Of a stretch of DNA of 64,000 nucleotides, positions 1 to 48,181 are shown one piece after another. The notes below the pieces were generated by a model. It did not search any database, was not told where the DNA came from, and was given only the letters and a program-made list of their open reading frames with translations. Location: assembly GCA_046563655.1 (NCBI GenBank), contig CM102284.1:4154001-4218000 (forward strand), read 5' to 3'. The translations under genes and the position numbers were made by a program. Each line of letters opens with the position of its first letter. Position 1 is the first letter of the stretch. This DNA is from Yuukianura sp. NJ FZ-2021. Taxonomy: Eukaryota.

Positions 1-500
1 ACTGGACTGGAGGTTCTCAGTTGTTGTTGGTGAGGTTGGATAAGGTAAGTAAATCGTAAAAATCGAATAATACTAAAGTCACCAAACATGTCACGTTAGC
101 TGCGTACTTTAGTTTTGTATTCTGCACTCTGCAGACTGCAGTACAAGGTCTTAACGCTTACGTAATTTTTGTTGTTTTAGAGCATCACAAGAACACAATA
201 AACAAGCGTCAGCTGATTATTTTTTCACGTGGGTAATCTCAGCACAAGTCAGTGTTGTTACAGCACGGCGTATACGATTCCGGGATACACCGTTGACGAC
301 GACGTTTCAACCTAAAATAACTTCTGGAAGGCAGTAACGTCGTAGTTGACGTGAGTTACGCTTACGGAGTCTATCTTAACCTTCAAGGTCCTAAAACTGC
401 AGCTAAAGTAATTCGTATTATGAATTGTACCGTTAGAATAATCGTATCGTTTTAAATCCCGGTCATATATTTTTATTATTTTTCAGTTCTCACACGGAAA

Positions 501-977
501 ATGTCTGGCGTGATGGCCAGAATGATTCTTACGGGTGGTTTCGCCTTAATTGTTGCAGCGTTTGCCTATTTTTCAACGAGGGAGGAGCAGAACAGGAACC
601 ACGAGCACGCCCATACTAACCACCGTTCGGGTCGTGGTGGTGGATCGAGACCCCGACCAGATCCGGATCCTCCGAAAAACGCTTGGCATGATGCAAGGGA
701 TGCCCCACCAAGACGTCGGGCATCTCGTCGAGACTCGAACTCCTCGAAAAAACCAGCATCAAAGCGACATCAATTGGCATGCACAATCTGCCTTAACGAA
801 TTCTCAGAGTTACTTGACGCCGGAGCCGACATTTGCAGCACTTCCTGTGGTCACGTTTTTTGCATGAAATGTATCACGGCATACATCGCTTCACAAGACC
901 ATCCATCCATGGTCAAATGCCCAATTTGTCGCAGCTTTTTCAGTAAGGATTCATTGTCGCGTGTTTTCTTTTCATAG
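501..977 (+). CDS. Small RING-finger (C3HC4) protein with N-terminal hydrophobic anchor; putative E3 ubiquitin ligase
   Basis: Single-exon ORF with CTIC...CGHVFCMKC...CPIC; hydrophobic MILTGGFALIVAAFAYF at the N-terminus; 5'UTR intron gtaagt(45)...tttcag(486). Confidence 0.8.
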   Translation: MSGVMARMILTGGFALIVAAFAYFSTREEQNRNHEHAHTNHRSGRGGGSRPRPDPDPPKNAWHDARDAPPRRRASRRDSNSSKKPASKRHQLACTICLNEFSELLDAGADICSTSCGHVFCMKCITAYIASQDHPSMVKCPICRSFFSKDSLSRVFFS

Positions 978-1395
978 ATTATTCGGCCTACCAAACGCAC
1001 TTTATGTTCGGAGAGGAAATATACTTGCCAAGTATCATGACTCAAGTCTAATTATAATTAATATTTGAAAACCAACCATTAGATTACTAATTGGTACTGC
1101 CAAATCTAGGGGCAGCGTTTGTCGACTCCGATTTCTGGAGTTGATTGCGCATGAGATTATGCAATAAAAATAAGTATATTGTTAAAGTCACTGAGGTGTC
1201 ATTAATCGTATGAAGGCAATTAATTAAATTAGAAACTTACACTTACAAAATTTAATTTAGACCATTAATAATTTGCGAATAGTTTAATCATTTTCAGGTG
1301 TAATGTGTGGAGGTGGTGAAAATTACAGAATGGATTGGTAACAAAAGACAGTTTTTCTCCACATTTTTCGGACATACTTATCAGATCGGGTATTT

Positions 1396-2515
1396 TTACA
1401 TTAAATTTTGTCTGTGTGTAGGTCGGATGTATCTCACTCCGCCATTTTTGGCCCATTCTTTTTCAAATTCCAATTCAAGGATATGAGTTCCGGGTCTCCG
1501 GGTGAGTCCCGTTTCTTGTAATTTTAATCTACACATGTTGACATCGTCACGTCCTAAAAATAGGATCAAAAACGTTTATAATGTATTGTGCAAATTGTTT
1601 TTTTACGTTTTAAAACGAGTAACGGTGTACCTACCTGAAACGTAGAGAGCAGGAATCCGTCCAGCGTAGATTTCCATCTCTCGTTCGATATTCTCGCCGT
1701 CAAAGTGAACATACCACCATCCTTTGTTTTGTACATCTTTGGTAAACGGTACACGGAAGTATCGCTGCTGCTGCTGCTCAACATCGGGTGTTGGTAACAA
1801 CGGGGGAGCTGACGGAGCGAAGCTGTTGTTTTGCATGGGCTGGTAAACGGAGTTCGGAGCTCGTTCGGCCACCCCAGCTCGACCTTTGCTCTTGGACTTC
1901 CACGCGTCATAAACTTTCAAGCGACGATGGCATTCCTTACTGGACAAAGGAAAACAAGATTCAGCGACCTTGTACTTGCAACGTAGCAAGCTGATTGGAC
2001 TTACTGACAGGCCTCGACGAGAGTAACATCACAAGAAGTGTTGATAGTGTCTCGCAAGTCAGCATCCTTCCAACCGTCAAAGTTGGGTTTCTTTCCAGCC
2101 TTTAACGCTTCTACTACGTTTGATATGCTTAGACTGAATCCACTGCTGTTCGAACAATACGCAGGGAAGTTGGATTCTTGCGCTAGTCTAAAAGCCAGTT
2201 CTGAATCCCTTCGTTCCTGCTCATTCCGTGCAGTGTCTGCGCCAACCAATAGTCGCCCTGCGGCAGCAAACATGCTAATGGATGCCAGTCGAGCTGCGTT
2301 GGAGATTCCTTGCGTCTTGCCTTGTTCCCAATTTACTGAAACAAAGCTAACGGAAACCAAATTCTTATCATATCTATTCGCATATCACATTATTATAATC
2401 ATATTTTTGCACTAATCTATTTGATTAACGATATATTTCATGGTCAATTACCGTTTTTTCTTTAGCGATTCGCTGAGATTTTTCAGCTTCCTCTCGGTTC
2501 TCCGATGTAATTTGT
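1396..2515 (-). CDS. Diverged tandem duplicate of the myosin VI 3' exons (tail/cargo-binding domain only): short motorless gene (ATG 2273) or young pseudogene
   Basis: Exons ~2335-2005, ~1940-1635 and ~1554-1396 match the last three exons of the neighbouring myosin VI, keep GT/AG sites and splice in frame to a stop at the same position (…[22 protein letters not shown]). Upstream homologous exons (2452-2515, ~2600-2680) are deleted or out of phase. Confidence 0.7.
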
Positions 2516-3311
2516 CTAAAAGTCAAGCAGACTTGATGCATCAGCCTAATGCCTAACCTTGTTACTTGGTTGTGGTTAAGCTGAATTAAGTTAGTTTTCA
2601 TGTAACCTTAATTTGTAGAATTGCAATTTCAATGGTATCTTATGCTACTTATGGTACTTCCATGCCACAGTGGACGGATTGTAAGAAAAAAGTTCGGTCG
2701 CTTTTTGTAACAAACTCAGACCCAAACGACAAAGAATAAGCTAAAAATTTCAGACTTTGTTTTTGAAAGTATAGATTTGGCGAGTACAAAGTTGTGACGC
2801 CAAGTCTCAATATAACATCAGGTTATGAATACGAAATCACAAAATCGCAAATTAAGATTATTGCAACCGAGAAAATCAACAAGAATTTGGAATTACTTTG
2901 GATAAGCATTGCTCATTAATTAAGCATTATTCACCGATTTGCACCTCAAAATGTTGAAGTTCAAGTCTTTCAGAACGCTAATCACTCTTCGGTTTGTCAT
3001 TAGAGGGTACTGTGCATGCTACCAAGTTCATTGACAACGCTTGTCAACTCGGATTTTTTGTTGAGTTGATGGGGTTTGGTGATGATGTTTGAAACAAATA
3101 TACGTTTATTGTTGAATTCATTGGGGTGGGTGCGACTAATTTCACGACGGCAATGGATAATTACACTTGCAAAATTTAATTAAGACGATTAGTAATTTGT
3201 GATTTAGTTTACTCATTTTCAGGTGTGAAGATGGTGGAATGTGCAGACTGGAATAATGGTAACAAAAGACAATTTTTCCGTATTTTTTCGACGTAAGATG
3301 AGCTGCTATTT

Positions 3312-6300
3312 TTACATTGAATTTTTTCTGTCCGCAGGTCTGACGTAACTCGCGCCGCCATTTTTGGCCCATTCTTTTTCAAATTCCGATTCAAGGATTT
3401 CAGCTCCGCGTTTCCGTGTGAGTCCCGTTTCACGTAGTTTTAGTTCACACATTTCCATATCGTCACGTCCTAAAAATCAGATCAAGAACAGTTTACAATT
3501 GATTTTTCAAATTGCGTTTATGACACAAGTAGTAGCGGTGTGCCTTACCTGCAACCAAAAGAGCTGGAACTCGTCCAGCGTAGATTTCCATTTGTCGAGC
3601 GATGTACTCACCGTCAAAGTGAGCGTACCACAAGCCTTTGTTTTGTCCATCCTTGGTAAACGGTACACGGAAGTATCTTTGCTGCTGTAGCTCAGCATCC
3701 GGTGTTGGTGACGGAGTTGATGTAGCGAAGTTGTTGGTCTGCATGTGCTGGTAAACGGACTTCGGAGCTCGTTCGGCCACTTCGGCTGCGCCCTTGGCTC
3801 CACCTTTATTCTTGGCCTTCCAAGCGTGGTAAACTTTCAAGCGACGATGGAATTCCTCACTGGATGAAAGAAACCAAGAATCAGCGACCATGAAGAAGCC
3901 TCAATGCTGTTTGGACTTACCGACAAGCATCGAGAAGTTCGACATCGCAAGAAGTGTTGATTGTATCCCGTAACTCAGAATACTTCCAACCACTAAGGTC
4001 ATGTTTCTTTCCAGCCTTTGATGCTGCTGCGACATTTGACCTCCTCAGGCTAAGTCCGCTGCTTTCCGAAGAATCCACGGTGAGGTTGGATTCTTGCGCT
4101 AATCGGAAAGCTAGCTCTGAATCTCTTCGTTCTTGTTCCACCGCTGCAGTGAATCCGCCAACCAATGGAGCGTCACCGTTTCCGTTTTGCTTGCCTGCAA
4201 GACGTTGCTGCTCAGCTATTTTCATGACAGCTGCCAACCGAGCTTCTTCTTCCTTTCGTTTTGCTTCAATTTCCAATTTACTGAAACAAAGTAAAGACGT
4301 AGATCGTATTCATAACGTTGCTTTTTATCGAAAAATGTCAAGGTAACTTTCAAAATTTCAACTTAATTTTAATTTCAACTTACCGCTTCCGATTTTCTTC
4401 TTCAGCAATTCTTTGTCGCTCAGCCTCTTCCTTTTCCCGTTTTTGTCTTTCCATTTCTTCCCGGATTTTTCTAGCTCGAGCTTGTTCTTCAGCGTTTTTC
4501 TCAGCTTCGACCCGTTGACTCAACGTTTTAATTAGAGTATCACATTTTCCTAGGAGATCTTGATAGACTTGTTCAATTTCCTTCTCCGAAATTTTGTCAT
4601 TGGTCTAAAAGTTCAAAGTTCAGAGCCATAAGTTAGCCTAACTTCGTTAACTGGTTTAGATTTAGCTAGGTTAATCTAGTTTTCAACTAGCCTTGATTTG
4701 TTGAATTGCACCGGTAATTGTTGCGTTGAGTTTCTCAACTTCCTTCTGACTTATTTCACGATCTTTCTTTAGCTTTGCCACAGTTTCGCCCATGGCCGTA
4801 ATCTGGGTCAAAAGTTTCCTGACCTTGAGGATTCCCTTATACCGCGGACGATACTTTTTCTTGGCCAAGTGCATCCGAACTGTCTTCTGCATGATGATCA
4901 AGTTTTCGCGGCGGTAAGCGATTTTGTTTTTCACTGAAATGAAAAAGAAATTCGAAATTTTTTAACTCCAAGTTTTTCTTTTTGTGTTGCAGCGCATTGG
5001 AGCAAGTGACCTTACGTTTGATAACAGAGAGACCTGCGTACTGCACTTTTTTCCACTTGGATTGGATGATCCATTTGGCCACAGTGGACACCATTTCAAC
5101 CAAGGACTGTGGATCATTTCGCATGATTTGATCAAATTCTTTAAATTTTCCTGGACGAAAGAAGACCCGGGTCAACCCAAATCGGAAATCTTCTTCGGAG
5201 AGACCAAGGGCCTTGAACAGAGCTCGGCAAAAGAAGCGCGGGTCAAGCGATGACAACTTTGGTGGCAACAAATCCTTGTAAGTTGCATACAGTGATGCAA
5301 ATTGAACTCGAGATGGGAACCCCTACAAAGGCAAGATTCAGCGTTAGTTATAACTACTTTGAGAAGAGAATTTACGCTTCTTGTAACATGAGCGCTGATT
5401 GGCTGTCACCTTTTGCATTAGTTCCAGAACCGACGTCATGCCAGCCGATTGTAACTGGGACAGGATCTGCCCGCCTTCGAATTCGGACTGAATCATTTTA
5501 GCGTTCGGTTTGATGCAACGAATGAACGATGTTCCAGTGCCTCTCAACTTTTCTAAAAGTTCGCTCAACTGCATTCTAAATTTTGAGGCGACGCTGACAT
5601 AAACGAGTTTTCCTTTCTGCTGCGGCTGATTCGTCAAGGAAAAGAGGCTCATCAGGAATGGATTCTTGGACTCCTGGACCAATCCTTCCAGCGATGCATG
5701 CAAAGCGTCATTGTTCTTCTCGATAAATTGCGTCTATTAATCAAGAAAGAGTTAGGAGAGGTACTAGGTTACTAAAACTTTCAAAATGTAATTCCCCAAT
5801 TGTCAAACGAAATCTTAAGAACTGCTGGATACCAGGGATTTGTCGAGATTTTACGAAATGGCGACTGTGCTTACTGTTTTGTAGCAAACGGCTCCAGCGA
5901 AATGTCTGACCAAAAATCCTTCTTCATCTCTGATTTCACGGTGTTCTTTAATTTTAGATTTTCGGGGAAGAGCCAATCGGAAGTGAGATGGAAACGCTTT
6001 GTGAACTTGGGAAGTAAAATGTGACGCTGCGGGTTTAGGAAGTTTTGATTCTTCGTCCAGAATCGACAGGATACCGAGTTTAGGTGACTCGATTAACTCA
6101 ATACAGTCTGGAATAATATAAAACAATAAATTAATGCAAATGCGTGATTTGCTAATTATTTGCAGTGTTTTTTCAATGATTTGGATTAAATTTTACCAGA
6201 GTTGTCAATGTACTCAATTCGATCGACTCCAAGACCCTCTTTTTCGTACAGCGTTTGTTCGTCACTGAGAACACGTTCGTTGAAAAACTGTTGTAATTTT

Positions 6301-10844: not shown

Positions 10845-13203
10845 TCAGCTCTTTTTCTTTAAAGTTTTTCTGTAAGCTGTTGAACGCCGTGTTGACCCAA
10901 CCACCAACAGTATAAGTTCCAGTATTCTTAACAATTTACGACCAATGTAACTGAAAATTTTTAAAACAAGGTAAACAACAATCGCAATTGAAACTATTAG
11001 GAGTCCAATGACATCAAGCGAGTGATACTGGAAGAAGTTAAGATCTCTAGCGGCAGAACGTAGGTGGGTAGCTCCTGAAATTAAATAGAAATTAAAAGAA
11101 GAAACAAATTGTCGTAAACGAAATTTAAAAAGCATAATAAGATTCCTTACCCTTATGCCTCATCACATATTCTGTCCAGAAAACTGCTCTATCCAAGGCT
11201 CCCATTGGCTGATCCAGCAGCATCTCGGAAAGTCGCTTAGCATTTGCTTTGAAACTGCGAACACAAAATTCATATTTAAAAGAATAGACGAATTAATTAA
11301 AACAGGCACTCAATGTGTTAGTAAATGGGGTTGTCGGGAATTGATCGGTCTGTTACTCAGAAGAGCTGATTTTTTTTAACTTTAAAAAAAAATTAAAAAA
11401 AAATTTTCACTCTTTCACGGAGTCAGAACTCTCAACAAAAAATTTTTAAACGTCAAAGAAAGTGGGGTTGTACATAGGTAGGTTCATGTACTTCAATTGT
11501 GAAAGACAACGTTCAATGGTGAAAATAGATGGAAAGAATGGGAAAATTAAAAATAAAATCTTACACTTACACACATTCTTTGATTCTTTTTTCAATTTTT
11601 GAATTTCGAAAAAAAAATTTTTTTTTGTCGAATTTGCTGATTTCAGTTTACAAATCCAATTCAACTTTCAACAAGTTAAGTACCTGGGATCGTCAACGAC
11701 GCGCTGGATTGTCCGGAGTAGGCTGTCAGCCGTCACTGTCACAAAATTTACTGTGAGTGCGAATCCAGCATTTTCCGCTCCTTCCATATTGTTATGTTGG
11801 TCAGCGAACATTGGGATACCAACAAGCGGAGTTCCATGACACACTGCCTCAGTCGTACTGCCAAACCCACCGTGGGTCACAAAAGCTCTATTTTGGACAG
11901 AAAACAGCAAAAGCTTTGTTAGGTCAAAGGTCAAGTGAAAACTCTAAGGACAGCACTAGTTTCAGAATTCTGTTTACCTAATTTTAGGATGACCAAGAAG
12001 ATCCTGCTGGGGAAGCCATTTGCTCAGCTTGATATTCTTCGGTAAATTAGGAACAATTGGAGTGTCCAGTTCCCATTTCCACAAAACTTTCTGTTTCAAT
12101 TTAGAAAATGCTTCGAGGAACACAAGTCGCTTGTGTTCCGGCATGTCACTGGATTTCGCATTTGACCCCATGCTGAACAAAATGAATCCATCAGATCCAG
12201 AACTTTCAACAAATTCCGCCAAATCCTAAACCACAAAAAAAAATTAGAACTTCGTCGGAAATGTTTAGATTAACCACTCCAACCTAATATAAACTTTACA
12301 TGACAAAAACATAAAATTCTACCTTTCTGTTTATTTTACATTTACATTTACCTTGGGAAGAGGCTGTGGTTTCCGACAATGCATGCCACCGACTTCAACA
12401 ATGTCTGGAAGAAATGGGCGTGGTTTGGAAATGGCAAAATTACTATTTGACAGGATCAAGCTCGAATTTTTCAAGATGTCGCTCAAGTTTGGGAATTCCG
12501 GGTCATTGAACTGCTGACGAACAACGTTTTCCATGGCTGGAACATACACGAAGTCGTACATGGCGCGTACCAATCCCTCTGTCAGCAAATTCTCCAGTCG
12601 CTGGAGAAACGACATTCGATCGGAAGAGAAACCCGTGAAAGCATTCGGAACAATGGATGTCGGAGTTGGATTTCCGAAGAGTGACGAAATGTGACCAACG
12701 ACACTGAGGGGACTCGTGAAAATAGTTGTGGTATTGAAAGTATGAGCAAATGCTGCCGAGCATTCGTTGTACAACATTGGCATGATGATGAGGTCAAACT
12801 TTTCCTTCTGGAGGTCACGAAGATGTGGTTGTTCCAGTGTAAATCGACAAGCGTCGACAACCAATTGGAGCACTTCCAAGTGCAAACTGATCCAGTGGAG
12901 CCCAGTAGTTTGTTCCTTCATTTCAAAAACGTTTGTGAACCCTTTACTCCTGCTGGCCATGAATACATCGAAGTCTGAACTGAGTATCTCCCGCATGTTG
13001 GGCACTGTAGTTTTGGCAGGAATTGGTGACAGGACGGTGACATTGTGACCTTTAGCGGCTAAAGCTTCTAGAAGTGGTTGGTAAGTGATTTTGTGTGACT
13101 TTGAGGACCAAAACGCTATGGCCAAAATATTTTCTCCATGTCCTCCAATTACCAAAATTACTAAAAATATTGACAGTTGAATCAAAGTATTTGGAAAATT
13201 CAT
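10845..13203 (-). CDS. UDP-glycosyltransferase (UGT), ER membrane type
   Basis: Signal peptide, SH motif (SKSHKITY), UGT signature [12 protein letters not shown]…[33 protein letters not shown]-terminal TM and basic KKKS tail; about 5 exons. Confidence 0.95.
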
Positions 13204-14083
13204 TTCCAAAATTTAAAAAATTAGAATTGACCCCTAACGAACTAATTGTACAGCGCTCAAAACATGACTGAAGGGCTCTTGAAACGATAATTGATGTCCA
13301 CCGTGTGTTAAAAGCACATCTTCACACTTCTTTATCAGGTTAGCTTTGTAACACTTTTGCTAATCAATTGACACTTTGGAGTTAGATAAGGAAAAAGAAA
13401 ACAACTCTCAAACAATCGGTATTTTCCAACGATTCCAACCGAAGCCTATAATTTTCATACATTCTCGCACTAAAATCTAAAACAAGTTGACCTGTGACCT
13501 TGTCGCAACCTTTAGATGCTTTTACCGGGGCGCAAATGTTTTCTGAGTTTACGCTATTTTTCCCATTTTGCGACTGCTACGCCAAAACTGCTGATGCCAA
13601 AGTATGGCAAGAGGTTTCTCAGTTTAAATTTTGAAAATGGCCTCGGAAGTACAAAGTACGACAATAACTACGACGAATGGGAGCTGAAGATGGAACTGCG
13701 TGCACCTGCAAATTAAAGTTTAAAATACTATTATACTATTTAACGTTATGATTGAAACTGAAAAACAAATTAACTTTAACTTGACTTTGCTAGTTATGGT
13801 TAGGTTGTATTTATTAATGTCCCAAAAAAAGCCACACTTGATCTGGAAGAAGATCTTTATAGGACACAGTGGCGCTAAAGTTACCGTTGTCAAAATATTG
13901 CATACTGTAACTTCAAAAGGTTCTTATGTCATTCTTTTAGTAATCGTCCATTCGTCAATCGGTCGAACCAATTTCGTTTTATCCGTCTATCATCGATTTT
14001 TTGCTTATTATCAAGTAATTATATAATTAATTAGAACTTGTTTTCGCTTTAGTTCTTGTCTTTCAGTGGGAATCTGCAACAGG

Positions 14084-16581
14084 ATGCCTTCAATCGCAGT
14101 CAAAAGGGACGTGCTGTACGAACGGTTGGGAAGGAAAATGTGTAAGTTTAATAAATTGAATTTTAACTTTAGTTAATTCATTCAGGCGTGACGAAGCGAA
14201 TAATAATTTTTGAACTTTTGATGTAGCGGACGAAGAGTTCGATGTTCTCTGTTTCCAGTTCGGCGTAGAGTTGGATGAAGTGGTAAGCTTCATTAATCGT
14301 TAACTTTTAACATTTAAGTTGTTTGTAGTCAGTCTCTGTGTTGTGTACTAAGTTCGTGTACGTACGGTGACGACGATACTGCGAAAATGAAAGTTTTAAC
14401 ATGTTTGTGACATATTGAAATCAAAATTATTGTCTAATTGAAGTTTCTTGAATTTAGTTTGTAGACCCAAATAACACCACGGGACAAGTTCAATACAAAA
14501 TTGACATTCCGGCCAATCGTTACGATTTGCTTTGCATTGAAGGGTTGTCAAGATCTCTGTTGGTATTTTTGGGAACGTAAGTATAACACTCAAAACCGAA
14601 TTAAGGATGTTGTACAGACGAAATGATCATTCGAGTGTTTGTGTTTCTTCTTTTTAGGATCCAGCCTCCAGTGTATAAGAGCCTTCCTCCTCCAAAGGAT
14701 CAAATCCAGACGACAGTGAAGACATCGACGAAGGGAGTGCGTCCCTATGTTGTTACTGCTGTTCTTCGAAATGTAACTCTGGATCAAGTTGCATATGACA
14801 GTCTCATCGAACTCCAGGAAAAACTCCATCATAACATTTGTCGCAGGCGAACTCTTGTAGCAATCGGTGTGCATGACTTGGACACGCTGTCACCACCATT
14901 CGTTTATTCCGCAGAACCTCAAGCAGAAATCAGCTTCAAGCCACTCAATCAAGACAAGGAGTTTCGAACAGACGAATTGCTCGTTTTCTATCAGAATAGT
15001 CCCCATCTGAAGCAGTATCTTCACATCACGAAAGACGAACCACTCCATCCCGTAATTCGGGATTCCAAAGGAGTTGTTCTCTCTCTACCACCAATTATCA
15101 ATGGGGATCACTCAAAGTTAACGGTGAATACCAAGAACATTTTCATCGAATGCACTGCAACTGACATGACCAAAGCTAACATTGTGTTGGACATTTTGGT
15201 CACGATGATTGGGGAACATGCAGCGACGAAGTTCATCGCAGAGGAGACTTTGGTTGTGTACGAGGAAACCGGAGAAGTCAAGAAGTATCCATCGCTGGCT
15301 TACCGCAAGGAGCCACTGAAAGTAAAACAAGTCAATGAATTCATCGGAATTGAGTATGTGAGCGTACTAGTGCAAAAACGTTTCTCTTTTTTGAAAGTTA
15401 AAGTTATTAAGGGAAGTTTTATTTTTGTAGAATTTCAGCGGATGAGATGGCGAAGGGACTCACTCGTATGACACTAAAGACACAAGTGTGTGATGCTGAT
15501 TCTTTGGAAGTCGAAATACCTCCGACTCGTCACGACGTCATTCACGCTTGCGACATAATGGAGGATGTTGCAATCGCATATGGCTACGACAACATTGAAA
15601 AGAATTTACCAAAGACAGTTACTGTGGCAGAACAAGTAAGCCCAGGTTTAAAAAAATATTCCTCCGTAGCATTTCAATTCACCAATTTTCTTGTTTTTTT
15701 CCCCAAAGTTCCCATTGAATAAGCTGACGGATCAGCTTAGAGAAAGTTTGGCGCAATCGGGATTTACGGAAGGACTCACTTTCTCATTAGTAAGTAGCTT
15801 TAATTCTTAAACGTTTTCGTATTCTTGTATAACTTGTAAAAATTTGATAGTGTTCTGTGGATGATGAATGTGAGAAAATTCGTCATCCGAGAGCCGAGAA
15901 AGAGCCAACGTTAGCCAGAATTTCTAATCCAAAGACACTGGAATTCCAAGCTGCGAGGCAATCGCTTCTTCCTGGTAAGCAACTTATACTAAATTGCGTA
16001 AATTCGAACTGACAGTGTAATTAAACTCGCTTACTATGATGGATTTAAGGGCTGCTAAAGACAATACTAGCAAACAAGAAAATGCCCCTGCCTCTGAAAC
16101 TCTTTGAAATCTCGGATGTTGTATTGTTGGATGAAAACGACGGTAACTCCATGTTTTCTAACAAAGTTAATTAAAAGTTTAAGGCTAAAATTGCAAATGT
16201 TTTTCAGATTCGGGAGCAAGGAACGAGCGTCGTCTGTGCGCAATCCACTACAATAAATCACCAGGCTTTGAAATAATTCATGGATTACTGGACAGAGTAA
16301 TGCAACTTGTTGAAATTCCATTTCATCCTACGCAAGGCTACAGCCTGAGGGCCACTGATGGTAACCTTCAAAGTTAAATTCGAAGTTATGGTTACCGAAT
16401 TTACACCAATTTTATTTCTAATCATTCAGATCCAACTTACTTTGATGGACGTTGTGCGGAAATCGTATGGAAAGGAAAAGTAATCGGGAAATTCGGAGTT
16501 TTGCATCCAGAAGTTCTGGAAAACTTTGAACTCAATCTTCTTGGAGCTGCGATAGAAATTTCAATTGAACACTTCTTATAG
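14084..16581 (+). CDS. FARSB: Phenylalanyl-tRNA synthetase beta subunit (cytosolic)
   Basis: Spliced exons give MPSIAVKRD…[17 protein letters not shown]…[17 protein letters not shown]…[28 protein letters not shown]…[23 protein letters not shown]…SNPKTLEFQ…EISIEHFL*. Confidence 0.96.
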
Positions 16582-16677: not shown

Positions 16678-17259
16678 CTAAACATATTTGAAAATCATGT
16701 CTTTCTTGTCATCAGTTGTCTGTAGTTCCAGTTTGATAGGACACTGGAGCCAATAGGATAGTAGCTCTTCTGTGTAGCCAATTAGGAAGTACATCTTACG
16801 AGCAGTAACTGCTCGTTGAACAATTCCAGCTATCCGAATCAAATTGTTTTGTCGTTTGATTATTATTTCAGACACGAAGAGGTTGTGCCAGGTTCCAGTC
16901 ATGAAGCGACGGATGAACATGTCCTCAACGGAGGTTTCTGATTTGCGGATCCCGTATTCTGGAAAACTGGCTGGAAACAGAAAATATGAAACCCACGAGA
17001 TCAATACTTCATCACAACATTCCAGGAATGATTTGTTTAGCAACTTACATGTGTTGTATGAATTCCAAGCTTTCCTGCGTGCAATGAAATGAGGTTTCTG
17101 TGCCTGTTCATAGGTCAACGGGTTGTTCATCTTTAGGGTCACGCGAAATCGTCCAGACTTGCATTTGTCCAGTTGCGCTGTAGTGAAAATCCCTCGAGCC
17201 CAAATCGGAGTAACTGTCGGTAATGTCGGTCGAGATATAACACACGATATGAAAGTCAT
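16678..17259 (-). CDS. mRpS24: Mitochondrial ribosomal protein S24 (uS3m)
   Basis: PLTYEQAQKPHFIARRKAWNS…EDMFIRRFMTGTWHNLFVSEIIIKRQNN…YFLIGYTEELLSYWLQCPIKLELQT; one intron at 16971-17048. Confidence 0.92.
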   Translation of the reverse strand: MTFISCVISRPTLPTVTPIWARGIFTTAQLDKCKSGRFRVTLKMNNPLTYEQAQKPHFIARRKAWNSYNTCKLLNKSFLECCDEVLISWVSYFLFPASFPEYGIRKSETSVEDMFIRRFMTGTWHNLFVSEIIIKRQNNLIRIAGIVQRAVTARKMYFLIGYTEELLSYWLQCPIKLELQTTDDKKDMIFKYV

Positions 17260-17768
17260 TTTTACTAAACCTGAAAGCAATAAATCAGCATAAGTTAGAA
17301 ATTCGATAATCGGCTTAAGTGATACGTTCTTACAGGAGTGCTGTCGTCCTGGATGTCACCAGATAAGAACTGACGAAATTCGATTACTAATCAGATCCTT
17401 ATTCAATTAATTGTTCAATTTTTAAGTCTTGTCGCTTCGGCCCAAAAACAAAACAAGAAACAATCAATTAGCGCCTCCCGCTCTTAATTTTTTAAATTCT
17501 TACCAAAGAGAAGCATCGCTGAAAATTTGAAATTGAATCAAATATTAAAAATATGTAACTTTTTATTTATGTATTAACAAAAGTTTCAATCTATACTTTT
17601 AGTACATAATTCATTAATATTATAAACACTTAGGTTACTGACTTCAATTCTGGACTTTTACGTCGAGAATACTGTATGTGGGTCGGATTTTAGTCCGTCC
17701 CGTTCCCGTTTCAATTTTAGAAATGAATTATTGTTAAAAATATCTGTAAACTTGGATTACTCCGCGGG

Positions 17769-31252: not shown

Positions 31253-33694
<2,442 letters not shown>

Positions 33695-34536
33695 CCTTGT
33701 GACTCCCTTGCAATCGTCTAGTGATTTAAGTCCTTGTTTCCCGTATTCCGTATACTCACAAGTATTAAGAACAGGTCAGGTGAATGGTTATTAACACTAA
33801 CTGTGCCATTAAGTTGAATCGAATTGCGGAACCCATAGTGTAACTTAACTAAATTCTAAATTGACTTTGAACCTTGGTCTCTAACTTGTCGTCATTCAAA
33901 AAAACGAAACCAAAAACAGTCAGTCATGAAAATAAAATGCGTAGATTCAAAATTCAATTAAGCCGAATCGCCTATTACTGTTCACTGATTGAGTCTAGTT
34001 ACTACTTTATAATCAACTAAGTACCAACCAACAGCTTTGACGCCGCAAGCAACTAAATGTAAAGGTGGAAACATTTCTTTGTTTGCTGCCTTCTTGCAAC
34101 CGGAAGAAAACTCCCCCCCCCCCCCTCACTTCGCTGCTCGCTCATCTGTTCTGACTCTGCTCCTTGCTCCTTCCTACCTGTTGTGAATTTAAAAAATTGA
34201 AGATCATAAATAAGTAGTTACTTAAAAACTTAACGTACGCTCCCGTTAATTTGCATTTGACCTTCAATGAATCGCCTCAGGTCACTTACTGGTGGACGAT
34301 AACACTCCGTTCGTTCGCCCGTTCTCTCTTGTCCAGTTAAAACTGCAAAAGTGGTAAGATTTGCCGTACTGTAATTGAATTTCATTTTCAAAATTTAATA
34401 AGATACGATTCCGAACTGATTGATTACATAATTCATAATGGAATTTCCATACCAAGTTCTATACCAAGAGCTGCGACTCCAATGCAAGTTCAATCGTAAT
34501 TGGTGTGGGTTCTCATTTTGCAGATTCCTGTTACAA

Positions 34537-36528
34537 ATGCCGAATTCGGAGGATTACAAATGGCCGTCTTTCCCAAATCCATTTGGTGTGACAGACTATG
34601 GTGAAGGTCCTGAACCGAAAACGCTAAGGGAGCTGGAGATGACGAAATTGAGTGCCAGCATTCGTCGAAAACCATATTGGTTTGACAAAATGAAAAATCC
34701 AGAAATCCTTGCGAAATGGAAAGAAGAAGCCAAGGCCCAAGGACTAACTGACAATCAAATCTCATACGTCCTGCAAGAACTCACTTACTATGACGCATTG
34801 AGACAGCCGGAAAATGGCATTCAAGTATCCGATGTGGATGGAGTTTGGCACTCTGACACTTTGGTTGAAGATGCTCTACGAAAAGAGCTTCTGAACGGGG
34901 TCGAGCGACTGGAAGATATCCCTGTAGCTAAGAGAGACTGGCATCCAGGAAGTAGGAAGCAAGTATGGAACCTCGTTCATCCATCGTTGTACCCATTGAT
35001 GTATGGGAAGACACGTATTGTTCCAAAAGCTAAGCCCGCACTAAAGTTCTGCGGTGGAGGGAACCTTGTAGCTGTGTTTGAACTTCATCACGCCAAAATA
35101 TTAGAGCATAAGCCAAAGGCTGGTCAAGACAACGATTCCGTTGAAGGTGAAGAAGAAGCAGCCGATGATGAAGCAAATGACTTTGTCTCAAGCCAAGAAC
35201 AAGACGACACGGAGAAGGCAGGTGGAGGTAACGAAACGGCACACGAAGATGACGATGATGGGTTAGCAGATGAAGAAGATGAGGGTGCAGACGAAGTTCA
35301 AGAAGAAGCTGAAGCCGAAGTAGACGATGGAGAAGAAGGTTCTGAAGCTGACGAATCGGACAATGAAGAAGGTGCTAAAGAAGCAACTGACGACGATGAG
35401 GCTACCACTGACGAAGAAGAGGAGTCCGATTGGGAGAGTGACCCTGGCAATCCCTATGGAATCGACGAGGACGACTTCTGGATTTCCAAAAAATTTAGTT
35501 GGCTCCCAACTGACGTTGCCGTGAACAAGGATGGAACTGTCAAGATTCTCTCTTACATTAACAATTTACACCCAAAACACCACAAGGGTTTGTATGGAAC
35601 GCTGGAGAAAATACTTTCCAAGTTCATTCCGCTCTTTGAAAAAGTATTGCAAGACCAGACAGTTGCACGACCAAACCGAATCATTTTGGAGTCAAATAAC
35701 TTTTACGGTGATGCTGAATATCCAGGAGAAGATGACGATGAGGATGAAAACTATGACGAGAACTATGAAGAATGGGCACGAAATCGGCCTTTGATCTTGC
35801 CGGATGCTCCGGAAAAATTCGTCCCACCACCAGCCGTTGCCGAAACTAACCGAATCAGCCTTCGTGGAAAAAGTCTTCAAGTGATTGTCAAGTTGGCCAA
35901 CATCGTTCTCACTCCAGAAAATCCCAAGTTCCGTGGCGGAGTTTGGCATGTCGAGGGAATGGAGAACGAGCGTATCGTGGCATCCGGGATTTACTACTAC
36001 GATGTCTCCAACATTTCAAACAGCGAACTTGCCTTCAGACAACATGTCTGTGAACCTGGTTATGAGCAGGGTGACGATCGTGGAGTAGAAGGAGTCTACG
36101 GTCTGCAAAACGAAGAGGCCCTCAATCAGTTCCTGGGATCCGTCCAAACCAGTGAGAATCGCTGCCTTGCCTTTCCCAACATTTACCAGCATCGTGTTCA
36201 ACCATTTCAGCTGACCGACAGTACAAAACCAGGTCATCGCAAGATTCTTGTGTTCTTCTTGGTGGATCCAGGGAACCCGGTGACCGTGTCCACTTCAAGT
36301 GTACCACCACAGCAACTGGATTGGTACTTGGAAGAACTACAGAAGATTCCGCCCTTCAATACGCTTCCGTACGAAGTTTTTTGCCACATTGCAAGCTTTA
36401 TAGAGTGGCCACTCTCCTTGAAAGCAGCGAAGAAGATGCGACGGAAGTTGATGAGGGAACGGAAGTACTTCGTGTCCAAAAACAGCGAGCAGTATTTTGA
36501 GCGACCATTCTCTCTCTGTGAGCACTAA
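34537..36528 (+). CDS. DUF4246-family protein (2OG-Fe(II) oxygenase-like), intronless CDS with long acidic insert; HGT candidate
   Basis: Family motifs DWHPGS…LVHPSLYPL, SKKFSWLPTDV…SYINNLHP, LQVIVKLANIVLTPENP…WHVEGMENERIVASGIYYYD, AFPNIYQHRVQPFQLTDSTKPGHRKILVFFLVDP, end FSLCEH. Likely start ATG 34537 after a 5'UTR intron (gtaag 34354…ttgcag 34523). Confidence 0.85.
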   Translation: MPNSEDYKWPSFPNPFGVTDYGEGPEPKTLRELEMTKLSASIRRKPYWFDKMKNPEILAKWKEEAKAQGLTDNQISYVLQELTYYDALRQPENGIQVSDVDGVWHSDTLVEDALRKELLNGVERLEDIPVAKRDWHPGSRKQVWNLVHPSLYPLMYGKTRIVPKAKPALKFCGGGNLVAVFELHHAKILEHKPKAGQDNDSVEGEEEAADDEANDFVSSQEQDDTEKAGGGNETAHEDDDDGLADEEDEGADEVQEEAEAEVDDGEEGSEADESDNEEGAKEATDDDEATTDEEEESDWESDPGNPYGIDEDDFWISKKFSWLPTDVAVNKDGTVKILSYINNLHPKHHKGLYGTLEKILSKFIPLFEKVLQDQTVARPNRIILESNNFYGDAEYPGEDDDEDENYDENYEEWARNRPLILPDAPEKFVPPPAVAETNRISLRGKSLQVIVKLANIVLTPENPKFRGGVWHVEGMENERIVASGIYYYDVSNISNSELAFRQHVCEPGYEQGDDRGVEGVYGLQNEEALNQFLGSVQTSENRCLAFPNIYQHRVQPFQLTDSTKPGHRKILVFFLVDPGNPVTVSTSSVPPQQLDWYLEELQKIPPFNTLPYEVFCHIASFIEWPLSLKAAKKMRRKLMRERKYFVSKNSEQYFERPFSLCEH

Positions 36529-37085: not shown

Positions 37086-38000
37086 TTATGGATCGGGTAA
37101 CCTTCGGATGATTCTTGCTGGGTTTCCGGCCACAACCACATTTGATGGAATGTCCTTTGTAACAACGGCTATTTTAAATTAAAAAAATTGAATAAAATGT
37201 AAAAATACTATTATTACAATTTACAATTAGTATAGTAATCACAAATATGTGTGAAGTTGTGTGGTAACTCACATCCTGCTCCAATGGTAACTCCATTTCC
37301 AATTGTGACTCCTGGACAAATCGTCACGTGGCCCCCGATCCAAACGTCGTCGCCAATCGTCACTGGATACGCCAACTCAAAGTCCAGTCGCTGCTTTGGA
37401 CACAGTGGATGCGTAGCTGCATAGATGTGGACTCCTGGAGCGATCATCACGTTCTTTCCTATTTCAAAGCATCAGTACACAGCGTTGCTTTTCAGTGACC
37501 TTTGACCTTGGTAAATAAGTAAACATACCAATGGTGATGGGAGCGCAGTCCAGGATACACATATCAAAGTTGATTTGGGCGTTGGCGCCAAGGGTGATGT
37601 TATATCCATAATCACACCGAAAGTTCGGTTCAATGAAAGCGTCAGGAGCCGAATTCGGATTCAGCAATTTTTTCAGGATTGCTCTGCGCTGTTCTTTAGC
37701 TTCCACTGGAGCATCATTGAATTCACGCACAAGCAGTCGAGCTGCAAGTCTCTCTCGCGTCAGCTCGGGATCACTCGGCTTATACGGAAACCTAAAGAAT
37801 ACATAAAACTTAAAACCATGAAAATCCTGAAAATCCATCCCCTAAAAACACACTGTAGAAGCTTGTGACCTTGAATGACCTTACCCTGCATTCATTCGTT
37901 CCTTCTCTGTCAAGTGGGCGTAGGTGGATGGATCTGGTTGTACTGGAATGTCACGCTTCACGTTCCTCTCACTAGCCTTACAACAATTAGGAGTTGCCAT
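37086..38000 (-). CDS. Maltose/galactoside O-acetyltransferase-like protein (Mac domain + hexapeptide repeats), bacterial/fungal type, with 3 coding introns
   Basis: Spliced model MATPNCC…[19 protein letters not shown]…[16 protein letters not shown]…DCAPITIG|…ATHP…[23 protein letters not shown]…GAG|…[26 protein letters not shown]. Confidence 0.9.
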
Positions 38001-41699: not shown

Positions 41700-43657
41700 A
41701 TGGCTTTGCTTCGAGCTTTTATTGTCTTCACTGTGACGCTATTTTACTTTCTATGGAGAAGATCAAAGTACTACAAGGACAAGGAACTCCCGCCGGGTAA
41801 CTACTAATTTGTCTCCAAAGATTTCATTCTTCTGCGAGTGACCTTTGACCTCAATTTTGCTTTATTTCAAAATTTCAGGTCCAATCCGGTGGCCACTGAT
41901 TGGAAGCATTCCGCAGTTGATGATGGTTGACAAGAAATATCCGTACAAGCAATTTACCAAGCTGAGTGAACGATACGGAGACATCATGTCCATAGGTCTC
42001 GGAGTCCATTACGCCGGTAAAGTCAAATTCTGTAACAATGACGTTTGACCTTGACTTTCATGTTTTTTTTTCAGTTGTAATCTCCAACATTGACATTATG
42101 AAGGACTTGCTCAAGCGACCTGAATTTTTCATGGAGCGGTTCTTGGTGCAATTTGTATATCAGCGATCAGAAAACCCTAACTTAGGAATTGTGTTTGCAA
42201 GTGGCGAGTCGTGGGCAGAGATTAGGAGATTCACAATGAAGAAATTGCGGGACTTTGGATTTGGAAAAGCAGCATTTATTGAGGAAACGATCCAAGACGA
42301 AATGAGATCCCTCATGCAGCACATTCGGGATAAATCGGAGAATTCCGACTGCGTTTGGAAAGTCGACAATAGCAGAATTTCAATGATTTCGATCAATGTT
42401 CTTTGGACTAGCGTGGCTGGGTATCGTTTTGACACTTCTACTGACTTTCTCAGAAGACACATCGAAATGAATTCTAAAGTGTTTGAAGCAATGAAGCCAA
42501 GCAACTTGCTTCAAGTACTTCCGTTCCTCAAAATCTTCCCGGAATGGAGTGGCTATAACCGAAACGGAGAAATATTTAAGGCTGGTTGGAACCTCATGCG
42601 GGTATGAGAAAGCAAATTTTAAAAGAAAACTTAAAAAAGAAACAGCTTTGTATTTGAAAATTTTAGGAGCAAGTGGCTGATGCCAAACTGAAACGGCAGG
42701 GTAGAATGGCGGGTGACACGGAAAGCTTTGTCGACGCATTTTTAGATGAAATTGAAAAGAACCGCGGAAATCCTGACACTCTATTTACAGGTGACTTGTA
42801 CTGTAAAATGTTAAAATTTTTAGTTTTTAGTTTTGTTTAAGGTTCTAAACTAAAACTTTGTTTAGTTTTTGTTCTTCTATTGAATTATAGAAGATCAGTT
42901 GGCGGTGGTCCTCTTAGACCTGTTTTTAGCAGCGACGGATACGACAAGTTCTACTATTAGTTGGTTGACGCAGTACTTTGCGGTGTTTCCGAAAATTCAA
43001 AATCGTGCACGCGCCGAAATTATGAAAATGTCTGAAAATGGAACAAAATCAATTCCAGTGTCGGCGCGTAACAAGTAAGTTGCAACCTTACTATATTTCA
43101 ATTTTCTCATTTCAAGATTTTGAAAAGCCGTTGCTTTTAGAATGCCGTACGTCGTAGCTTGTATTTACGAGGTGATGCGACACGCTCCTTTTGGTTCATT
43201 GCCTCCAACACGTCAGACATCTTGCGACGTTGTATATGAAAATTACATCATTCCCAAGGGAACTTGTATCCTGTACAACCTGTACCCGGGGTTCCATGAC
43301 ACCAAATACTGGGGTGACCCTGAAGAAGTTCGACCTGAACGATTTCTTGACCCCACTGGAACAGCATTGAACCAAGAAAAAGTTGATCGAGTTGCTACTC
43401 AATTTGGATTTGGTAAACTGTCGAAAACTTCAATTTAAAGGAAATTAAGTTTTACAATGTGAATATGTTTAGGTAAACGAACTTGCCCAGGAGAATCAAT
43501 GGCTATGGATACTATTTTTTGTTACATAGTGACTCTGCTTTCGACGTTTTCAGTTGAGGTCAAAGCCGGAATGGAACCAACACTCAAACCAGGAACGCCT
43601 GCCATCGCAATGGCTCCAGCAGATTATGTCGCCAAATTCGTCCCTCTGACTCACTAA
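41700..43657 (+). CDS. Cytochrome P450, CYP2 clan
   Basis: N-terminal TM + PPGPIRWPLIG, WAEIRRF, I-helix DLFLAATDTT, EVMR, PERF, heme motif FGFG|KRTCPGE; about 7 exons. Confidence 0.93.
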
Positions 43658-44851: not shown

Positions 44852-47363
44852 ATGTCGCCCATCCCGTTTGCACTGCTACTGCTCATTGGAACCTTAGCTG
44901 TAGAGGTACAGTCCCCGGTGTTTTATTTTAGGCCGAATTCATGTCTAGTGAACTCTCTCTCCTCAAACTAGACATAGCGTGTGTAGATTGGTTCCTGTCG
45001 GTTGACATGTGCCTAAACATTTGGACACGATGTGGGTCTCCTACTTTTTTTCAGACTCCAGTAGACATGAATTCGACACAGAAAAGAATGCATTCCATCC
45101 TGTAAACAATTACGTATACAGAATATGCAATGCATTGTGTCTAGTCCGGTACTCCAAATCTTTAACTTAACTTTAACCCATCATCCGCGTATCATTTGGA
45201 AGGCTTAAAATGTTTCAACTGTTACACTGGGTCTATGTTTAACAATAAATTTTAAAAAAATTGTTAGTCCAAGGTGAAAAAAAAGGCCCATTTTGAAGGC
45301 TAACTTGGCTGAAAATTGACAGGCGACATAAAATAACCTCAAACGAGTTCGGAAAATGCCGGAAACGTTAACGTTAACGCCAGAGCTACCGGCATTCCTT
45401 TGTCGCTAATTTTTTTTTTGTTTTTGCAATTTTTCTTCTCTAAATTCAGATTAGAGCAAATTCGCACGTTTTTTAAGCAAAGGACGTTTTCACTTGTGAC
45501 TTTTACTCTGATGCTGAGGTCATTTAATTGCGGAAAATTCCAACTGCAATTAATTGTCAAGACGCAATTAATTGTGAAACTGTAATTAATTTTTCTTTCT
45601 TTTTTGCAAATGTAGTATTTCCAAATAATGTCTCCAAGGATAAACAAACTGCCAAAATTTCCGAAAGGAAAAACAAAAGTAAAACGCCTGGATGGAAATA
45701 CCAGTTTTCTGGTTGGATTATACCCATGTGGGTGCATGTTAAAAACTTAGAAAAATTTCGAGAAAAGAATGACCTATGACCTATGGCAACCCAAAAAATG
45801 ACCTCTACAAAAGTTGTTGGGCTTGACGAGGGGATTATTGTTTGTCCTCTGACATATGACCTTGTGACCTTCCGTTGAGGTCATAGATAAATTTGAAAGT
45901 TAGTTAGGTTGGGTTATGTTTAACCTTCAAATTGACCTATGACCTCAACGGAAGGTCACAGGGTCATGTGTCAGAGGATAAAAAATGATCCCCCCATCAA
46001 GCCCAACAATTTTCGTAGAGGTCATTTTTTGGGGTGTCTCGAGATGTCATTGACCGTTTTCTCGAAATTTTTCCAAGTTTTTAACATGCGCCCACATGGG
46101 TATAATCCAACCAGTTTTCTATATTTTGCATGAACAAAGTTTATTATTTAGCCATTTGTATATTTCTAGAATTAAGAAAAAAAATAACAGTGAATGGAAT
46201 TGCAGTGGAAGAAAAATTGCAAGGATTTGAGGGATTACCGAAGTAAAATAACCTAAAGCGTGGATCAAAATTTACAAGGAACTGAATTTTAAAACACCGA
46301 AACGAGAAACAGAGTCAAATACACATTCGTGTGCGAATTTGATTTTTAGTAAAAAAATGGCATGTGGTTAACTAAATTCTATTATTTAAATACTACTCGC
46401 TTGAAATTTAGTTCAGGCTGTTTTATAAATTATGGGAAAATCCAATGCCAATTAATGATTACGTGTTAAATTCCATAGGATTTGAAAATTTTGAACTTTT
46501 TGGACCATCTCCAAAATTTCGAACCATTGCATCAAAAGAAAATGTGAGGGGTCATTGTGAGGTCACGTATTGATTTGCAGCCAAATCTAAAATAACCTGA
46601 ATGATAAGTTAACCGAATCCACGAATCGCCAATTAATAATGTAAAAGATTGATCAAATTAAAGTGTGAAAATTAATGATTGAAAACTTCAAGATTAACGG
46701 ATACATGACAAAGATTAAACAGATTTAAGCAGTAGTTCATCAAAAACTAGGATATGGTAAGGTGGATAGTGGGTGTAACAGAAAATTAGTGCAGCGATGA
46801 TGGACAGTAGATCGAATCCCAGTAAGAAGGTCTTTTTTTTTCTTTTTCTTTTTGGAGTGTCTAAAATACTCGACACAACCATTTCTAAAGCGACTGTTCT
46901 GTATACTGGACCAGACAAACACTCCCAAGTCTTCCTCCTCCGGAAAATTGTCACAGTGTCTAGTCCAGTAGACACAAAAAGGGACCAAGTTTGTGGGTAG
47001 AAGATTCAACATACTACTGTACACAGCCTGTACCCAATTTCATTCACCGGGTCTGCTAAGCGGTCTGATGAGGATCATGAATACTCCTATGAAAATGACG
47101 ATGATCGTATAGCTAGCGCCCTGGAGGAGTTGCAAAACATGCGCAGGAGTCGACTGGGCGTTCTGTCAATTGGGGACAAAGATGGAGACGATAAATTAAG
47201 CTTCGATGAACTGCATGACCTTGTGAAGTCACAAGACAGTAAGGAAAAAGTAACCTCTGCAGAGATTCTGGTTCAATTCAAGAAATTGGACACAGACAAC
47301 GACGGTTTCATTACGCCAGAGGAATTGAGTGCAGCGGGAGAAATTGACTCTGATGAAAAATGA
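44852..47363 (+). CDS. Secreted two-EF-hand protein whose CDS is interrupted after codon 19 by a 2.1-kb insertion (disrupted allele or intronised TE)
   Basis: MSPIPFALLLLIGTLAVEV (44852-44908) joins in frame to HSLYPISFTGSAKRSDEDHE… (47022 onward) when the insert and one TA are removed; EF loops DKDGDDKLSFDE and DTDNDGFITPEE; intact paralog next door. Confidence 0.75.
44909..47019. mobile_element. Composite/nested DNA-transposon insertion with TA target duplication
   Basis: TA|CAGT…ACTG|TA boundaries; internal inverted repeat GCCGAATTCATGTCTAGTG (44932) / CAGTAGACATGAATTCGAC (45059-45077); GTGTCTAGTCC motif near both ends; contains a further MITE. Confidence 0.7.
45711..46112. mobile_element. 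Foldback MITE with GG…CC termini and 8-bp TSD (Merlin-like hallmarks)
   Basis: GGTTGGATTATACCCATGTGGG / CCCACATGGGTATAATCCAACC; imperfect arms ~190 bp; AGTTTTCT at 45703-45710 and 46113-46120. Confidence 0.85.
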
Positions 47364-47812
47364 AGCAAATGAACCTAACCCAACATCGATACTTAAACTT
47401 TGAAAACTTTGTCTAAAAAAATTTTCCAATTGCAACAGTAATAAACGCTTTAAGCAATCTCATTTGGAATTTGGAAATACACGAAATTGCGGTTTGTAAT
47501 TTGACCTTGACCTGGTGTTAATAAGCGAGTCTGTGCGTCCAGCGTTAACTTTAAGTTGAATCTGAAAACATGTCCAATTGAAGTATCGGTTTGTCATTAA
47601 ATGGCCTCAATTAGGAATTGTTACACTTAGGTTCATATTTAAGCTCAGAGCAATAACTTTTTCAATCATTCGACAGATTTTCTGCCTACTACTCTACGCG
47701 ACTTGGTTGAAGCAAACTGTGAGACAACTAAACAATTTGTGTATTCTCCGTAATATTGAAATCGAATTTAATTTGGCGCTTTGAATTATTTAGGCGGGAA
47801 ACTACTGAAAAC

Positions 47813-48181
47813 ATGGCCCCATTTCAATTCGCGATCTTAATCGTTGCTGCTCTGTGCGTCGCTGGAAGTAACGCTTCCGAAGAGCATTCGTTTGAAATCA
47901 TATACGACTATGACTCTATAGAAGCCCCTACGGATGACCAGATCCCGGACTTCCTCCGGGAGCTTGCCACGGTGTCACGTTCCAACCTCGGAGCATTGTC
48001 ACGCGGAGATACAAATATTGATGGGAAACTGAGCTACCAAGAACTTCATGACTTTGTTCGAAATACTGCCAGCAGCGCTCAAGACAAGTCCTCGACTGAA
48101 ATCAAAGAAGAGTTTGATTCAGTCGATACGAACAAGGATGGATTTCTGTCAGAAGACGAGATTAAAGCAAGTCGACAATAA
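47813..48181 (+). CDS. Secreted two-EF-hand protein (single coding exon), paralog of the gene at 44852
   Basis: Signal peptide MAPFQFAILIVAALCVAGSNA; EF loops DTNIDGKLSYQE and DTNKDGFLSEDE; shared RSxLGxLSxGD…ELHD motif. Confidence 0.85.
   Translation: MAPFQFAILIVAALCVAGSNASEEHSFEIIYDYDSIEAPTDDQIPDFLRELATVSRSNLGALSRGDTNIDGKLSYQELHDFVRNTASSAQDKSSTEIKEEFDSVDTNKDGFLSEDEIKASRQ

Follow-up and report, generated by a model that had tools for sequence, protein, structure and literature searches.

A diverged motorless tandem duplicate of the myosin VI tail, possibly a selected coding unit, in Yuukianura sp. NJ FZ-2021

New genes can arise by partial tandem duplication, as Drosophila Sdic and jingwei did. 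Among the myosins, headless forms appear in literature listings for myosin X and for plant class XI. Headless Myo10 (Hdl-Myo10) has been proposed to be a negative regulator that works by dimerising, by competing for cargo and by masking lipids (PMC6345916). In myosin VI, the RRL and WWY motifs of the tail are adaptor hot spots (PMC2635068, PMC10853514). Tail constructs of this motor are dominant-negative inhibitors (Buss et al. 2001, cited in PMC2064115), and expressed tails mis-sort cargo in cells (PMC2064115). The titles and abstract openings of the literature searched describe no natural motorless class VI myosin gene. Here we analyze a 64,000-nt stretch of contig CM102284.1 of Yuukianura sp. 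NJ FZ-2021 (the window), in which a complete myosin VI gene (the parent) is followed by a diverged duplicate of its 3' end (the copy). An earlier annotation of this DNA, the original prediction, had named RRL and WWY as adaptor-binding sites and tail-only constructs as dominant negatives, both in agreement with the papers above. We put the probability at roughly 55% that the copy is a selected, fast-evolving, tail-only spliced coding unit of 243 codons.

The copy resembles each of these systems in part. With the tail of myosin VI (MYO6, or Drosophila Jaguar; PDB 8W41, 3H8D, 6J56, 2KIA) it shares the cargo-binding domain (CBD) profile, RRL, WWY, the CBD linker and the site-I groove. However, it has no motor, insert-2/IQ region, lever-arm extension or single alpha-helix (SAH), 13 of 65 near-invariant tail columns are replaced, and two autoinhibition contacts are altered, H1113 (D) and the aromatic residue at 1201 (N) (PMC10853514). 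Its domain content, a tail without a motor, is also that of the dominant-negative constructs; those are laboratory truncations with an unchanged tail, whereas the copy is a separate locus with about 31% of its residues changed, known here from sequence alone. Like Hdl-Myo10, the copy would be a naturally encoded myosin without a head, but Hdl-Myo10 comes from a downstream start in the same gene, has the same tail and belongs to class X in vertebrates, while the copy is a duplicated and diverged class VI fragment. As with Sdic and jingwei, a fragment of the parental gene was duplicated nearby, has an open frame and evolved fast; in contrast to them, we see no sign that a foreign 5' exon or promoter was recruited, and the gene is a putative one. 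Headless motor derivatives and new genes by partial duplication are both known kinds to which the copy may belong, and the class VI instance would be new.

The parent occupies 8400-3312 on the minus strand, and its open reading frames (ORFs) match Pfam Myosin_N, Myosin_head, MYO6_lever and Myosin-VI_CBD. The copy, a repeat of about 1.5 kb of the parental 3' end, lies on the same strand at 2636-~1100 and starts some 700 nt past the parental stop. By blastn the two are 77.7% identical over 1036 aligned positions, with 52 gap positions (E 7.9e-171). This pair is the sole repeat that positions 1-3100 have inside the whole window, and the copy protein, used as a tblastn query against the whole window, matches two loci only, the parent and the copy. 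The blastn result bears out the original prediction that a diverged copy of the last three exons and the 3' flank lies downstream of myosin VI. Its proposed origin, partial tandem duplication, is supported as well; the copy encodes the cargo-binding tail only. What was duplicated in tandem is just the 3' end of myosin VI, and the event is specific to this lineage. Its anatomy (Table 1) was read from a MAFFT alignment, anchor searches and tblastx. For comparison outside the window we used the metagenome contig L003, in which a close relative's myosin VI is represented by its 3' end, with the same exon structure and an LWY motif; in the three exons this tail shares 76, 74 and 84% identity with the parent.

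From an ATG at 2273, three coding exons (A', B' and C') give a product of 243 aa, 68.5% identical to the parent over 241 aligned codons. Both introns are GT-AG and stand at the homologous parental positions. The original prediction of about 240 aa, with the frame from this ATG, both introns and the stop position kept, is therefore confirmed; its intron donors (2004, 1634) are correct, while its acceptors (1941, 1555) are each off by 2. Indels in the coding part measure 33 nt (near the start, where the alignment is uncertain), 12 nt and 6 nt, all multiples of three. The MIU-like helix of A' comprises 18 residues identical to the parent, with 8 silent differences. Exon B' encodes the peptide KGWWYVHFDGENIER, and its translation contains the retained RRL and the change from parental LWY to WWY that had been noted before. 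Past the stop, identity to the parent is 81% in the first 150 nt of flank, and the next 150 nt stand at p 0.35; the flank keeps an ATTAAA (1256) and has a second ATTAAA at 1288.

The encoded domain is recognizable at the level of profiles and of single residues. Against Pfam Myosin-VI_CBD (PF16521; cut-off 25.8 bits), exon B' scores 46.1 bits (profile positions 1-53) and exon C' 47.0 bits (53-90); parental exon B scores 57.9 bits. The best PDB match of the copy is full-length myosin VI, 8W41 (E 1.9e-17). Residue numbers follow the cryo-EM structure (PMC10853514) and the Tom1 complex (PMC6673701), and the assignments below are alignment-based. The copy keeps R1107-R1108-L1109 and R1129 along with H1106, Y1112 and W1115, which make up the head-contacting face of CBD1 (PMC10853514). 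Also kept are the CBD-linker block VAERAP-SVYQ, the TINT stretch, W1193, Y1194, E1207 and R1238. The site-I groove common to Tom1 and Dab2 consists of I1173, F1175, W1193, C1227, L1229, E1233, T1234 and L1236 (PMC6673701), and copy and parent agree at 8 of 8 positions, each having V at 1173. Among the residues specific to one partner, E1207 and R1238 persist, and Q1205 has become E and E1225 N.

The remaining changes that we list are F1105C, H1113D, A1195V, Y to N at 1201, A1203E, L1217Y, E1228R, R1240P, A1242T and E1243H. H1113, through a cation-pi contact with R1129, and the aromatic residue at 1201, which stacks on H1106, join CBD1, linker and CBD2 (PMC10853514). Altogether 2 of the 5 residues named are altered, which is not significant when about a quarter of the residues have changed. 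Position 1192, the first W of WWY, is site II, the Dab2 dimerization site (PMC6673701). It is W in most other animals and L in a tick sequence (LWF), in the parent, in L003 and in the relatives P0002-P0004. A WWY retained from the ancestral state is ruled out, since the closest relatives (L003, P0002-P0004) all have LWY like the parent; the W of the copy therefore came back on its own branch through a single base change (TTG to TGG).

We favor selection on the frame because it is stop-free and without frameshift, decay is seen only upstream of the ATG, and the splice signals are kept. After 80-140 random substitutions on the parental sequence (241 codons, 5000 trials per setting), the frame remained stop-free in 0.26-3.8% of trials; when the codon model is fitted under neutrality, the copy branch carries about 150 changes. 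Counted from LVG onward, there are 2 indels to ~150 mismatches in the coding part, each a multiple of three, compared with 17 per 126 mismatches in the aligned non-coding and ex-coding parts, where 13 of 17 are not multiples of three (Fisher p=2e-4 for the contrast). The non-coding ratio of 0.135 indels per mismatch is reportedly near the value for Drosophila dead-on-arrival elements. At this rate a neutral copy would be expected to hold 11-16 indels and would escape any frameshift with a probability of 3e-4 to 4e-6, or of 0.06-0.016 if indels were one third as frequent.

The splice sites and the protein point the same way. None of the six splice signals has been lost: the 2607 donor, both sites of a 64-nt exon remnant, the acceptor of A' and the sites of both internal introns. 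In the A' acceptor region (2345-2327), 19 of 19 bases are as in the parent, and the intron body beside it stands at p~0.5. In the two longest blocks of identical protein (18 + 11 codons), all 14 differences are silent; the permutation P is 0.024 for the three longest runs of this kind, summed, and 0.059 for the longest alone. Differences between parent and copy are rarer at conserved columns (13/65) than elsewhere (63/176; Fisher p=0.02). The preservation of frame, introns and stop thus goes beyond what the stop simulation and the indel test predict under neutrality. We also count in favor of selection the many functional residues that persist, the surviving ATTAAA with its well-conserved adjoining flank, and the ATG-free leader described below. 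Each of these arguments is modest singly; combined, they make it unlikely that the copy has been a pseudogene all its life, though they would also fit a gene that died recently.

Upstream of the ATG the picture is one of decay. Homology extends further upstream than the original prediction had described, with about 71% identity over 134 nt to parental positions 4721-4590 at its 5' limit (tblastx and alignment), and the intron after the pre-SAH exon remnant is also recognizable. Besides the ~25-nt and 64-nt exon remnants, tblastx found no homology to the parental gene in 2340-3100. Upstream of the copy no motor, insert 2/IQ, lever-arm extension or SAH domain remains; the parent has them all. 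The SAH exon remnant has lost 161 nt internally, and its parental frame runs into a TGA. Between the old acceptor of the third-last exon and the ATG, -1 and +5 nt indels break the parental frame, and a reading in parental phase through 2335-2274 halts at a TAG (2277-2275). The earlier statement that the upstream SAH/IQ exons are deleted or out of phase thus holds. All of these disabling lesions (the 161-nt loss, the two indels and the parental-frame stops) lie upstream of the ATG, with zero in the 243 codons downstream; the visible decay ends at about 2297. Joined at the kept splice sites, the remnants would give a hypothetical 180-nt leader with 0 ATG, a post-hoc observation; the unspliced region 2700-2274 holds 8 ATG, all in would-be introns or upstream. 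By eye only, we saw no TATAAA and no well-spaced pair of initiator (Inr) and downstream promoter element (DPE) between 3100 and 2273, which carries no weight either way. The parental pre-SAH exon (~4683) seems to end in a GC donor (AAG/GCTAGT), given the phase-0 acceptor of the SAH exon; the homologous donor is a canonical GT in the copy (AAG/GTTACA, 2607/2606) and in L003 (AAG/GTGAGA).

Table 1. Positions, in window coordinates, of the parental and duplicated myosin VI segments and of other genes in the window. A slash in a sequence marks an exon-intron boundary.
Feature	Position	Strand	Remarks
Source unit in parental myosin VI	3020..4720	-	Pre-SAH-exon end, SAH exon, last three coding exons, ~300 nt 3' flank
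Parental SAH exon	4604-4381	-	225 nt
Parental last three coding exons	4280-3921, 3859-3549, 3469-3312	-	
Parental stop TAA	3314-3312	-	End of last coding exon
Parental poly(A) signals	ATTAAA 3180, AATAAA 3110	-	3' flank of parent
Pre-SAH exon remnant	2607..2636	-	3' end, ~25 nt; GT donor AAG/GTTACA at 2607/2606; 5' limit of detectable homology
SAH exon remnant	2452..2515	-	64 of 225 nt; acceptor TTTTAG/A and donor ACG/GTAATT kept
5' part of old third-last exon	2274..2335	-	Upstream of ATG; old acceptor 2336/2335
Coding exon A'	2005..2273	-	ATG 2273-2271; MIU-like helix, TINT stretch, start of CBD1
Intron 1 of copy	1940..2004	-	GTAAGT...CAG, parental position; 46/61 aligned bases match parental intron
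Coding exon B'	1635..1939	-	CBD1 helix with HRRLKVY (RRL), CBD linker VAERAPNSVYQ, first CBD2 half with KGWWYVHFDG
Intron 2 of copy	1554..1634	-	GTAGGT...TTTTTAG, parental position
Coding exon C'	1396..1553	-	Second CBD2 half; TAA 1398-1396 at homologous position
3' flank of copy	1100..1395	-	Homologous to parental 3' flank; homology fades ~300 nt past stop
RING-finger gene	501..977	+	Convergent; Pfam zf-RING; old downstream neighbor of myosin VI
UDP-glycosyltransferase	11668-13212	-	
B3_4-domain ORF	14605-15468		
MRP-S24	16681-17355		
Glutamate dehydrogenase	31945-33450	+	
Cytochrome P450 fragment	41996-42604	+	
Two neighboring EF-hand ORFs	47001-48178	+	

The explanation that competes best with selection, though we consider it less likely, is an unprocessed pseudogene: a promoterless partial duplicate, neutral or recently released, whose last 243 codons have so far escaped a stop or frameshift. 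Partial duplicates of this promoterless kind are usually dead. The rates of protein change weigh in favor of this explanation and against a selected copy. With L003 as outgroup, the copy branch has a dN (the rate of replacement change) of 0.177, about 14 times the 0.013 of the parental branch. The 75 amino-acid differences, polarized by L003, fall 54 to the copy and 2 to the parent, with 19 ambiguous; polarized by 20 more distant myosins VI, 30 fall to the copy and 5 to the parent, with 37 ambiguous. At the 65 columns that are at least 90% conserved in those 20 sequences, the parent keeps 64 residues and the copy 52. With 13 near-invariant positions replaced, among them F1105C, H1113D, A1203E, Q1205E, E1228R and the KRGAEIL stretch, the copy falls short of a faithful decoy. 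Decay is plain in the upstream part of the duplicate, and in the 3' flank the parental AATAAA has become AATATA (1180), so that this signal is lost.

Neutrality is not rejected by dN/dS. The pairwise dN/dS (replacement over silent rate) of 0.35 (Nei-Gojobori, bootstrap 0.24-0.51) is set aside as support for selection, because the Nei-Gojobori dS of 0.55 exceeds the distances at four-fold sites (21/72, Jukes-Cantor 0.37), introns (34/138, 0.30) and 3' flank (75/282, 0.33), and the codon model gives 0.76. With dS split evenly, the copy branch alone has a dN/dS of 0.64 (Nei-Gojobori, bootstrap 0.42-0.94), a value that depends on the same high dS. In our self-written branch model of the Goldman-Yang type, with kappa and F3x4 frequencies, omega is 0.76 for the copy and 0.04 for the parent, and the copy value does not differ from omega=1 (2dlnL=1.93, p=0.16). 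By exon, omega is 0.68 in A' (p 0.20), 0.63 in B' (p 0.15) and 1.49 in C' (p 0.44); for A' and B' together it is 0.67 (p=0.067). The copy dN amounts to half the four-fold, intron or flank distance, which by these yardsticks is about the neutral rate. Differences at the three codon positions number 46/43/70, and a constrained parent with a neutral copy would give the same. The amino-acid evolution of the copy is not distinguishable from neutral drift. The dN/dS comparison with the parent that the original prediction had proposed, with a value near 1 indicating a pseudogene, is thus equivocal: below 1 pairwise, not different from 1 on the copy branch.

Silent sites of L003 are saturated (raw proportion of synonymous differences, pS, 0.88 to the parent and 0.85 to the copy), so silent changes are not polarizable and a free-branch codon model is not identifiable. 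The value of 0.88 is above the 0.75 for random sequence, despite 74-84% protein identity, and so indicates strongly different codon usage, L003 being G+C-rich at third positions. The G+C content at third positions of copy and parent (0.46 vs 0.44) is uninformative.

A neutral history has its own difficulties. It would leave an open frame with a probability of 0.003-0.04, and it would avoid frameshifts with one between 0.06 and 4e-6, according to the indel rate assumed. It also has to accommodate disabling lesions only upstream of the ATG, splice signals kept even where the adjoining intron is randomized, 29 codons of protein blocks with silent differences only, and the depletion of changes at conserved columns. 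However, the finding was chosen for being intact; the chance estimates are biased by this and their apparent significance is inflated, a further point against selection.

A second alternative, which we regard as improbable, is that B', C' or A' serve as alternative 3' exons of myosin VI, reached by read-through splicing from a parental donor, and so provide a full-length motor with a second, divergent cargo-binding domain. Conserved phases make this possible: the parental exon A donor (3921/3920, phase 2) joins the B' acceptor (1940/1939) in frame, as the exon B donor (3549/3548, phase 1) does the C' acceptor (1554/1553), and the exon B donor also joins the A' acceptor (2336/2335) in frame through the copy ORF, which is open from 2384. 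The short distance of about 700 nt on the same strand is favorable too. However, the transcript would have to read through both parental poly(A) signals, and the natural junction into A', from the SAH-exon or exon A donor (phase 2), meets the TAG at 2277-2275. Use of B' and C' alone would leave the intact frame and silent-only blocks of A' unexplained, and a B-to-A' product would have a truncated first CBD2. Nor is the arrangement a conserved architecture, as the 18 related loci whose downstream sequence reaches 1500 nt or more all lack a second tail. An assembly artefact or uncollapsed haplotype is ruled out because of the 22% divergence and the structured decay.

The order of genes around the copy helps to place its origin. 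In L003 an ortholog of the RING-finger gene directly follows myosin VI on the opposite strand (tblastn 6464-6051, 35%, E 7e-17). The stops of the two genes are ~345 nt apart there, versus 2335 nt in the window, where the copy lies between them. L003 therefore has the myosin VI-RING order without the copy, and the duplicate is lineage-specific and arose after the split from the species of L003. A scan of metagenome contigs with P0004 as query gave 57 related loci, 56 of them with a tail match; a second tail was absent from 18 of the 18 that have at least 1500 nt downstream. The same kind of scan with exon B' gave 83 pattern matches and 0 relatives, and a search of longer proteins with exon B' gave 35 candidates, none of which scored. 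All but one of 152 relatives in the databases resemble the parent more than they do the copy. The original prediction had suggested a search for the copy in related species; this did not turn one up, as 0 of the 152 have any of 7 copy-specific motifs and no ortholog of the copy was found among them, which again favors a pseudogene over a selected gene.

Divergence between parent and copy drops from 5' to 3' (0.41, 0.22 and 0.11 per branch for A', B' and C' in the codon model), which suggests that an older gene conversion may have homogenized the 3' part. Recent gene conversion was considered as a cause of the open frame and rejected, since all 159 coding differences postdate any conversion.

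If the copy is a selected coding unit, how might it work? It would be transcribed into a short mRNA of its own, with a 5' leader joined by splicing from what is left of the decayed exons upstream and with ATG 2273 as its start codon. Lacking the motor, the protein would be unable to bind actin and would occupy part of the partners of the myosin VI tail: RRL and site-I/WWY adaptors, ubiquitin or lipids. In this way it could compete with or modulate the motor, as tail constructs do and as headless Myo10 is proposed to do. Such a role as decoy or regulator is drawn by analogy with these forms, and because of the many replacements we would expect an altered rather than identical specificity. A more far-reaching proposal, which we offer tentatively, is that a separate motorless myosin VI tail gene in an arthropod-like animal provides an inherent control on the one actin motor that is minus-end-directed. 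It would have regained the site-II tryptophan of WWY, absent from the motor of its own lineage, and lost H1113 and the aromatic residue at 1201. With those contacts gone, the tail would be constitutively open, and the protein a fast-evolving competitor for a subset of adaptors.

Elsewhere in the window, an intron-free ORF of 698 aa (34432-36525, plus strand) matches DUF4246 (E 4e-128) and lies where the G+C content of the window is highest (0.447). At a distance of about 1 kb, an ORF on the minus strand (37467-37841) has a maltose-acetyltransferase capping motif (Mac, 5e-12). We take both families to be typical of fungi and bacteria, and the two ORFs may have been horizontally acquired by this animal genome. 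Two adjacent ORFs in 59174-60178 (minus strand) match DDE_Tnp_4 (1e-10, 1e-11), a transposase of the Harbinger/PIF type that is apparently split.

Control of myosin VI involves back-folding of the tail and competition of adaptors at the RRL and WWY sites, and tail-only constructs are routinely used in the laboratory to block it. If the copy is a pseudogene, tandem duplication has produced nothing out of the ordinary here, and the interest lies only in how long a frame stays open by chance. If instead it proves to be a selected tail-only gene, it would be a natural experiment on which tail residues matter without a motor, and it would mean that genomes can themselves evolve an inhibitor or modulator of myosin VI.

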